From Escherichia coli (GTDB lineage: Bacteria; Pseudomonadota; Gammaproteobacteria; Enterobacterales; Enterobacteriaceae): DNA of 64,000 nucleotides. The stretch is from assembly GCF_044324875.1 (NCBI RefSeq), contig NZ_CP172185.1. One strand, written 5' to 3'. Below the pieces are notes generated by a model. It was given only the letters and a program-made list of their open reading frames with translations, searched no databases and was not told where the DNA came from. The position numbers and the translations under genes were made by a program. Within the stretch, counting starts at the first letter, position 1; each line of letters opens with the position of its first letter. Shown in pieces: positions 38,687-39,844 of this stretch.

Positions 38687-38872
38687 TTAGTGGTTATTCG
38701 CTGCCAGGTCGGCTTCGCTTAGCTGGGTGGCTGCGAGCACCAGGTCACGATCAATGCCCTGTTCCAGCATGCGCAAAGCAATTTTAATGGCTTGTTCATG
38801 CATGCCTTCTAATTTACCCTCCTGCCAGCCAATTTGATGTCCTTCCTGCCGTAGCCGTTCAGCAATAGTCAT
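38687..38872 (-). CDS. ypaA: Small Rpn-like C-terminal-domain protein (duplicated rpnB tail)
   Basis: 61 aa, near-identical to the C-terminal about 60 aa of the adjacent rpnB ORF; the DNA is a direct repeat of the rpnB 3' end. Confidence 0.75.
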   Translation of the reverse strand: MTIAERLRQEGHQIGWQEGKLEGMHEQAIKIALRMLEQGIDRDLVLAATQLSEADLAANNH

Positions 38873-38884
38873 TAATCTCTCCTT

Positions 38885-39844
38885 TTAATGACCGTTCGGA
38901 ATATCAGCATCAGTGAGTTGGGTTGTCGCCAGCACAATCTTACGTTCAAAGCCCTGTTCCAGCATGCGCAAGGCAATTTTAATGGCTTGTTCATGCATAC
39001 CTTCTACTTTGCCTTTCTGCAACCCCTCCAATTTCCCCTCCTGCCAACCTTCAATTTTACCTTCCTGCCAGCCAATTTGATGTCCTTCCTGCCGCAGCCG
39101 TTCAGCAATAGTCATTAATCTCTCCTTTTGTAGTGGTGAACGTTCGGCAATCTCCTCAATAAAACGGGTGAAACGGGAGGTATCGCCGCATTGCAGCAGA
39201 TAATTAAACAGCGTTTGTAGCTGGCTGTCATTAGTGAAGCCTCTAACCAAAAGCGTGGTGATCCTGTCGACCATACCGATTAAATCGCGGTCGCGAATAT
39301 GCTTTTGAATCAGTTCAAGCAGAGCTATACGCCGATGTTGCATGATCTCATCGTCAGGTACGATGGTGATATCCACCAACGGAAAAGCTTCGGTGTACAA
39401 CTGCCGGGCAAGTTGCGGATCGTCAAACTCATCCAGCCAGTTGAGTGAGTACGGGTAGGGCGAGGTTTCGCCATGATAAAACAGCAATGGTACCACCAGC
39501 GGGACTCTGTCATAGCCTTTGTCCAGATGACGTTGCATGGCGGCAGTGGCATAGCGCATTAGCCGAAAGGCCATATTCTTTTCCGCGGAACTTTGATGTT
39601 CAATCACGCAGTAGATATACCCGTCACCGTCGCTGGTTTCCACCGACCACAAAACATCCGAGTAGTAAGCGCGTAAACTTTTTTCAATAAAGCTGGTGGG
39701 TTCCAGGCGTAAGGTTTGCAGGTTGCAAAGCTTGCGCAGCGGCTCTGGCAGATGTATTTCGAGAAAATCCCGTGCGGTTTCGGGTGTGAACATAAAGGTT
39801 TTAAACACCGCATCATGCGGGGAGGAGGTTGTTGATTCGGTCAT
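38885..39844 (-). CDS. rpnB: Recombination-promoting nuclease RpnB (PD-(D/E)XK, transposase_31 family)
   Basis: 319 aa; N-terminal nuclease-like domain and a C-terminal tail containing EGWQEGKx octapeptide repeats. Confidence 0.85.
39003..39074. repeat. Three in-frame 24-bp tandem repeats inside the rpnB 3' region
   Basis: Consecutive 24-mers encode IGWQEGKI / EGWQEGKL / EGLQKGKV on the minus strand; ypaA carries a single copy. Confidence 0.8.

Follow-up and report, generated by a model that had tools for sequence, protein, structure and literature searches.

The rpnE–ypaA locus of an Escherichia coli-group strain: a probable Rpn gene-within-gene toxin–antitoxin locus with a variable four-residue repeat and a stand-alone copy of its nested gene

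Introduction

Rpn systems are a recently recognised case of an antitoxin encoded within its own toxin gene. The rpn genes hold nested genes, and the small C-terminal proteins made from them (RpnS) attach to the toxic long proteins (RpnL) and inhibit them (Zhong et al. 2023, PMC10400941). The same work reported that a plasmid-borne Rpn protects against phage; binding and inhibition of RpnL by RpnS, together with phage protection, were shown for RpnA, RpnC and RpnP2 only (PMC10400941). In E. coli, all RpnS and RpnSs proteins vary by 4-aa repeats in helix 1 of a three-helix bundle seen in the RpnA_S crystal structure, and RpnC_L is neutralised only by an RpnC_S of equal repeat number (PMC10400941). 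Where a downstream copy of the small gene exists, it may disappear, either deleted or fused to the N-terminal region of rpn (PMC10400941).

Several of these elements had been reported for RpnE. Internal initiation sites were mapped by Ribo-RET in all rpn genes, and the product of the internal start in rpnE was found to resemble YpaA (Meydan et al. 2019, bioRxiv 10.1101/520783); the RpnE_S internal start was also reported in PMC10400941. The gene ypaA, named rpnE_Ss, encodes RpnE_S a second time, and both an initiation peak in ribosome profiling (bioRxiv 10.1101/520783, PMC10400941) and an SPA-tagged protein (PMC10400941) were reported for it in K-12. Over-expressed K-12 RpnE was the sole family member without a toxicity, SOS or recombination phenotype, a negative result that is ambiguous because the construct still held the nested gene (PMC5350276).

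Here, we describe the rpnE–ypaA locus found in a 64,000-nucleotide stretch of E. coli DNA (hereafter, the window) and compare it with these systems. The nested small gene, the variable repeats, the duplicate copy and its loss by fusion are all already known (Zhong et al. 2023, PMC10400941); the window adds one further, common combination of alleles.

Results

The locus consists of two open reading frames on the minus strand: rpnE (yfaD), which encodes a long protein, RpnE_L, of 319 aa (38885..39844), and ypaA, or rpnE_Ss, a stand-alone duplicate of rpnE_S that encodes 61 aa (38687..38872). The gene order is rhmT–rhmA–ypaA–rpnE–glpC, with rhmT and rhmA (yfaV and yfaU) on the plus strand and glpC on the minus strand; a GC-rich, terminator-like hairpin (38653..38679) lies between the convergent yfaU/rhmA and ypaA. 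The interval between glpC and rhmA/yfaU is the yfaD–ypaA site of E. coli K-12. The initial annotation had named the long gene rpnB, a name that must be replaced: in the published nomenclature RpnB is YfcI and RpnE is YfaD (PMC5350276), and the gene is rpnE rather than rpnB because it sits between rhmA/yfaU and glpC.

Profile comparisons agree with the annotation of the K-12 orthologue as rpnE. The ORF scores 707.7 bits against NCBIfam NF007418 (PRK09956), above the cut-off of 583 for orthologues, and its product scores 416 bits against the RpnA model (NF007361), with positions 1-256 aligned collinearly to residues 1-256. A PD-(D/E)XK nuclease/Transposase_31 domain covers aa 8-209 (39218..39823, minus strand; Pfam PF04754, E = 8.5e-88). 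RpnE keeps, at the same numbers, equivalents of all six residues essential in RpnA, namely D11, D63, E82, Q84, R94 and D165 (Kingston et al. 2017, PMC5350276). Precomputed annotation places the RpnE C-terminus and YpaA alike in a newer Pfam family, PF27070 (HTH_Rpn_C). Of the initial description of a toxic PD-(D/E)XK nuclease, the Rpn-family nuclease domain is borne out by NF007418 and PF04754, but toxicity is unsupported for this paralogue, given the lack of a phenotype of K-12 RpnE (PMC5350276).

Other searches contributed little. Full-length RpnE had no match in the PDB at E <= 0.01. PADLOC v2.0.0, which is without an Rpn model, returned as its sole match a weak, unrelated and uninformative 'putative invertase' in the C-terminal region (E = 7.9e-5). 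Weak matches to FliH and Yae1_N were discarded, as they arise from the low-complexity tract.

The RefSeq labels of the two genes are misleading: ypaA is usually presented as a pseudogene fragment, and rpnE bears the product name 'ISNCY family transposase' in every RefSeq record, which is in line with the Pfam name 'Putative transposase, YhgA-like'. Taken at face value, these names would make rpnE an ISNCY-family transposase and the direct repeats described below its transposition scars. However, of 5426 complete E. coli genomes, 5420 have the locus at one chromosomal position, the interval from glpC to rhmA, with a single main copy. No terminal inverted repeats were noticed at the rpnE locus, the direct repeats consist of duplicated coding sequence whose reading frame is conserved, and published characterisation describes Rpn proteins as nucleases without autonomous mobility (PMC10400941, PMC5350276). 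We regard a transposase as extremely improbable, and consider that rpnE (yfaD)–ypaA of this E. coli-group strain very probably belongs to the published Rpn family of gene-within-gene toxin–antitoxin and candidate phage-defence systems.

Both genes contain a variable repeat tract. In rpnE, and hence in the nested rpnE_S, the tract holds 8 units of 12 bp, each encoding 4 aa (38993..39088, minus strand), while K-12 has 3; in ypaA, in-frame reading and alignment give 4 units (38798..38845, minus strand), the number also present in K-12 YpaA. The initial annotation described three 24-bp repeats. Tandem Repeats Finder does report a period of 24 with 3.0 copies and 70% matches (38999-39070), but the elementary unit is 12 bp, the 24-bp period being a pair of units, and RpnE contains eight of them. 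The greater length of the ORF compared with K-12 had been read correctly: the 20-aa surplus (319 aa against 299 aa) is exactly five extra 4-aa units. The tract is no chance pattern, because orthologous alleles differ by exact multiples of 12 nt. It begins at residue 10 of RpnE_S, approximately 10 residues past the internal Met and within the expected 8-20.

The nested rpnE_S ORF starts at M244 and encodes 76 aa with a C-terminal HTH_Rpn_C domain (38885..39115, minus strand; PF27070); by analogy with RpnA_S and RpnC_S, we predict that it is an intragenic antitoxin. Its Shine-Dalgarno sequence, AAAAGGAGAG (39120..39129, minus strand), was read directly from the DNA and is separated by 4 nt (ATTA) from the internal ATG (39113-39115). 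An identical AAAAGGAGAG (38877..38886, minus strand), found in the sequence and in the alignment, precedes ypaA and is likewise followed by ATTA and an ATG (38870-38872). The TAA stop codon of rpnE (38885-38887) overlaps the first bases of this second Shine-Dalgarno; the ypaA start lies 12 nt past the rpnE stop codon. Almost every locus examined has the same 16-mer ahead of each copy.

As the initial annotation had noticed, the 61-aa ORF repeats the C-terminus of rpnE, and its approximate positions for the direct repeats agree with the two pairs that we delimited. The Shine-Dalgarno and ATG were duplicated along with the small gene. The first pair, of 91 nt and 91% identity, spans the Shine-Dalgarno, the ATG, the first codons and the last units of the tract (38796..38886 and 39039..39129). 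The second, of 122 nt and 80% identity, is a diverged repeat over the C-terminal helices (38709..38830, partner 38904-39025). Conservation is uneven along the duplicate: from the Shine-Dalgarno through the first 17 codons the nested copy and ypaA are identical at 66 of 68 positions, and beyond the tract they are approximately 80% identical, with a synonymous divergence of 0.385 in the tail.

Pairwise alignment also points to a possible boundary of the duplication. The sequence CCGAACG at 38892..38899 (minus strand) matches 39140-39147, upstream of the internal Shine-Dalgarno, and the short extra match ahead of both Shine-Dalgarno sequences reads CCGAACG(T/G)TCA. Short as this match is, it suggests that the junction of the tandem duplication may lie just past the '…DAD' codons, and that the codons closing rpnE (IPNGH*) may derive, in another frame, from a copy of the sequence ahead of the internal start.

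At the protein level, YpaA matches only positions 244-308 of NF007418 and resembles the RpnA_S crystal chain (PDB 7TH0, E = 3.8e-4). Designed PPR repeats came top in the same PDB search and were disregarded, since their scores sum weak repeat matches. The AlphaFold model of RpnE_S has a mean pLDDT of 67.9, with approximately 50 in the tract; helices are placed at 24-53 and 58-65, and the model is confident only beyond residue 40. A scan of 38600-40050 for the sigma-70 consensus found no promoter, including no internal one.

Could ypaA be a non-functional Rpn remnant? NCBI annotation suggests so: in most RefSeq records PGAP marks the gene as a pseudogene, with the remark 'incomplete; partial in the middle of a contig; missing N-terminus', and its match to the family profile is confined to the final fifth. 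Against this, 56 stand-alone copies keep the Shine-Dalgarno and ATG, all of them 57 + 4n aa long, and the tail of the stand-alone gene has a pN/pS of 0.21, which argues that it is under purifying selection. The initiation peak and the SPA-tagged protein of K-12 (bioRxiv 10.1101/520783, PMC10400941) already contradict a dead gene, and newer PGAP runs name the product 'Rpn/YhgA-type helix-turn-helix domain-containing protein'. The gene also persists outside E. coli. A database of 5.8 billion proteins contains stand-alone homologues of 57, 61, 65, 69, 73, 77, 81 or 89 aa, some of them from E. fergusonii and the cryptic Escherichia clades. These homologues, together with the divergence of the tails, indicate that the ypaA duplication is older than E. 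coli, and we judge a mere remnant to be very unlikely.

The allele carried by the window is not peculiar to it. Three other NCBI assemblies match the rpnE–ypaA segment without a difference across 1301 nt (100% identity); against complete RefSeq E. coli the best identity is 98.1% for this segment and 99.3% for the flank at 30000-36000. In a public collection, RpnE of exactly this sequence is present in 223 blocks, and YpaA of exactly this sequence in 613. The arrangement of 8 units in RpnE and 4 in YpaA (8/4) also occurs in two complete RefSeq chromosomes (L002 and L081). One may suspect that misassembly of a repetitive region created the duplicate and the additional repeats, as short-read assemblies often break here, with many contigs starting just upstream of ypaA, and reads of 150 nt cannot phase the two tracts. 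However, the complete chromosomes and the 1301 nt shared by three independent assemblies leave this explanation with a practically negligible probability; 8/4 is a common natural allele, neither an artefact nor a rarity.

Repeat number is polymorphic across strains, as the initial annotation had anticipated, and far from identical in all of them: sampled E. coli have 3-11 units in RpnE and 3-8 in YpaA. The RpnE/YpaA combinations in complete RefSeq chromosomes are 3/4, 4/7, 6/4, 7/3, 8/3, 8/4, 8/5, 9/7 and 11/7; 7/7 and 10/4 come from other NCBI assemblies. Alleles of rpnE with 3, 8, 9 and 11 units are all frequent. Unit numbers differ between the two genes in 10 of the 11 reliably assembled co-resident combinations, and the two tracts vary largely independently across strains. 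From the first eight genomes it had appeared that the stand-alone gene never matches the repeat number of the nested one; this rule was discarded on account of the 7/7 pair, which occurs in seven contexts (L061-L067), one of them a complete chromosome.

To count one-gene and two-gene forms, we sampled 60 evenly spaced complete genomes. Approximately 34 have two genes, approximately 25 (≈40%) have a fused single gene and 1 is otherwise altered. At the two-gene loci of this sample, YpaA has 4 units in approximately 20 cases, 7 in 7, 5 in 2 and 3 in 2, with 3 uncounted. The single-gene forms consist of the RpnE body and a YpaA-type tail, with 5 units in one example (L008) and 3 in another (L009). 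Partial-coverage BLAST classes (H30-H39), considered at one point as extra locus types, are ordinary two-gene loci for which the BLAST pieces were joined differently. In one genome, rpnE is interrupted by IS2.

Such recombinants raise the question of whether ypaA works mainly as a recombination cassette, that is, as a silent or semi-silent spare C-terminal module that diversifies the tail and the tract of RpnE instead of acting in trans as an antitoxin. Homologous recombination between the copies, leading to fusion/deletion or to gene conversion, would then diversify the specificity domain of a defence nuclease. The expected recombinant is carried by 25 of the 60 sampled complete genomes, and an 8-unit tract identical to that of the window RpnE is joined to a YpaA-type tail in other records (P0007 and P0014). 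The near identity of the 5′ block next to tails that have diverged suggests ongoing conversion, and the 10 mismatched combinations also speak for a cassette. On the other hand, YpaA has its own Shine-Dalgarno and ATG, an intact ORF and a low pN/pS, and its detection in K-12 (PMC10400941) means that it is expressed; moreover, a matched 7/7 pair exists. The 77-aa (8-unit) YpaA records, tried as proof of tract exchange, were rejected in that role and counted as weak evidence only: most of them come from short metagenome contigs, whose short reads are unable to phase the tracts, from frameshifted fused genes or from assemblies that break there. As the principal role of ypaA, a cassette seems to us rather unlikely. 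The cassette and antitoxin roles are not mutually exclusive, and can coexist.

Discussion

We hypothesize that RpnE_L is a nuclease kept inactive by RpnE_S, the product of the nested gene, through the domain that both share, and in particular through its first helix, as in RpnA and RpnC. The tract of 12-bp units in that helix gains and loses units without leaving the reading frame, and slippage during replication or unequal recombination is the most likely cause. The gene ypaA arose long ago as a tandem duplicate of the nested gene that took along its Shine-Dalgarno and start codon, and it is most likely read from the same transcript as rpnE and rpnE_S, as the 12-nt spacing suggests. Its 5′ end has stayed nearly identical to the copy in rpnE while its 3′ half has diverged. 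No longer linked to the sequence of the long protein, ypaA may drift to another repeat number, and recombination between the copies often collapses the pair into one fused gene.

The number of 4-aa repeats tunes which small protein silences which nuclease. Because RpnC needs an RpnS of equal repeat number, we predict by analogy that the 4-unit YpaA of this strain would be a poor partner of its 8-unit RpnE_L. It is plausible, on the same analogy with RpnC repeat matching, that a stand-alone copy with a differing repeat number shifts the balance between toxin and antitoxin. The initial annotation had also referred to published work on small C-terminal inhibitors made from inside rpn genes, and this is indeed what PMC10400941 reports.

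A further possibility is that the 4-unit YpaA is unable to pair with the 8-unit RpnE_L or RpnE_S at all and is kept for another reason, either as a donor cassette or as a decoy or sensor titrated by a phage factor. Retention for another reason would be compatible with our observations, because 10 of the 11 pairs are mismatched, fusions are common, the 5′ block is seemingly homogenised and ypaA is under purifying selection. We nevertheless hold it to be quite unlikely. If it were true, a donor cassette would let one recombination event re-tool the helix for specificity or oligomerisation of the nuclease, and would thereby equip a defence gene with its own means of generating diversity.

Among the described systems, the closest is rpnE–ypaA of K-12, which shares with the window the chromosomal position, the internal Shine-Dalgarno and ATG at M244 and the downstream stand-alone copy. 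Only 2 substitutions separate the two RpnE proteins in residues 1-260, and in both strains the tails read …TDADIPN(G/C)H in RpnE and …SEADLAANNH in YpaA. The differences lie in the RpnE tract (3 units in K-12 and 8 in the window, hence 299 and 319 aa), in a few substitutions of the RpnE tail (E299K in window numbering and C318G) and in YpaA, where three substitutions accompany an unchanged number of 4 units and an unchanged length of 61 aa.

The pairs RpnA_L/RpnA_S and RpnC_L/RpnC_S have the same domain architecture as RpnE, a nested ORF that starts at residue 244 and a 4-aa tract approximately 10 residues further on. Unlike in RpnE, for which toxicity and neutralisation are proposed by analogy only, both properties were shown experimentally in RpnA and RpnC. 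K-12 RpnA also differs from rpnE in having no downstream stand-alone copy. Such a copy is present in rpnC–rpnC_Ss of some E. coli strains, likewise a tandem duplication of a nested small gene; however, rpnC_Ss belongs to a different paralogue and, by the phylogeny of that paper, has an independent origin (PMC10400941).

A more distant parallel is offered by the TAEL repeats in HsdS of EcoR124I and EcoR124II, where the number of 4-aa (12-bp) repeats in a helical spacer also alters the specificity of a defence protein (PMC10400941). HsdS is from an unrelated family, and its repeat fixes how the DNA recognition sequence is spaced rather than which antitoxin pairs with which toxin.

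Discussion

The 61-aa gene ypaA (38687–38872, minus strand), directly downstream of the Rpn-family nuclease gene rpnE (38885–39844, minus strand), duplicates rpnE_S, the C-terminal ORF nested in rpnE. A short match, CCGAACG(T/G)TCA, is found at 38892–38899 and at 39140–39147, 5′ of each Shine–Dalgarno copy, and this homology may mark the junction of an ancient tandem duplication. As far as so short a match can indicate, the C-terminal residues peculiar to RpnE, IPNGH*, would then be encoded by an out-of-frame duplicate of the sequence 5′ of the internal start.

About 40% of the sampled complete E. 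coli genomes (approximately 25 of 60), O157:H7, IAI1 and ATCC 25922 among them, carry a single rpnE with a YpaA-type tail, as do two further loci, L008 and L009. This single-gene form is what results when the two copies recombine and the pair collapses into one. YpaA itself can also change length by a route other than its 4-aa tract: in the 76-aa variant P0019, 11 residues are instead duplicated internally in helix 2.

Disrupted alleles were also observed. In strain UTME-10 (NZ_CP157104.1, locus at 260–2132), an IS2 insertion truncates the C-terminal end of rpnE, leaving a pseudogene and removing the normal rpnE_S/ypaA arrangement. Four other loci (L018, L021, L055 and L072) have a frameshifted rpnE, split into an ORF of approximately 250 aa and a C-terminal piece called separately; such frameshifts are genuine inactivating mutations or else errors made in sequencing the tract.

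Many short-read contigs, including metagenome and Logan contigs, start or stop just upstream of ypaA (L022–L027 and L040–L047), since the duplicated head plus the tract exceeds the read length, and short-read assemblies may place tracts on the wrong copy. One other locus, L077, presents an 8/8 RpnE/YpaA pair, but on an untrustworthy 1.3-kb contig. Labelling in RefSeq (L001–L007, L078 and L079) is inconsistent and misleading: PGAP names rpnE an “ISNCY family transposase” and ypaA an incomplete pseudogene, the latter replaced in some newer records by “Rpn/YhgA-type helix-turn-helix domain-containing protein”.

Elsewhere in the window, a nuoG RNA motif (Rfam RF01748; 561–603, plus strand; 50.3 bits) lies directly 5′ of a 910-aa ORF (605–3337), which is ordinary, expected nuo operon context. 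At its best match among complete E. coli genomes in RefSeq, the rpnE–ypaA region (38600–39900) is 98.1% identical, whereas the neighbouring arn/rhm region (30000–36000) reaches 99.3%, and this greater divergence fits a locally raised rate of change or recombination.
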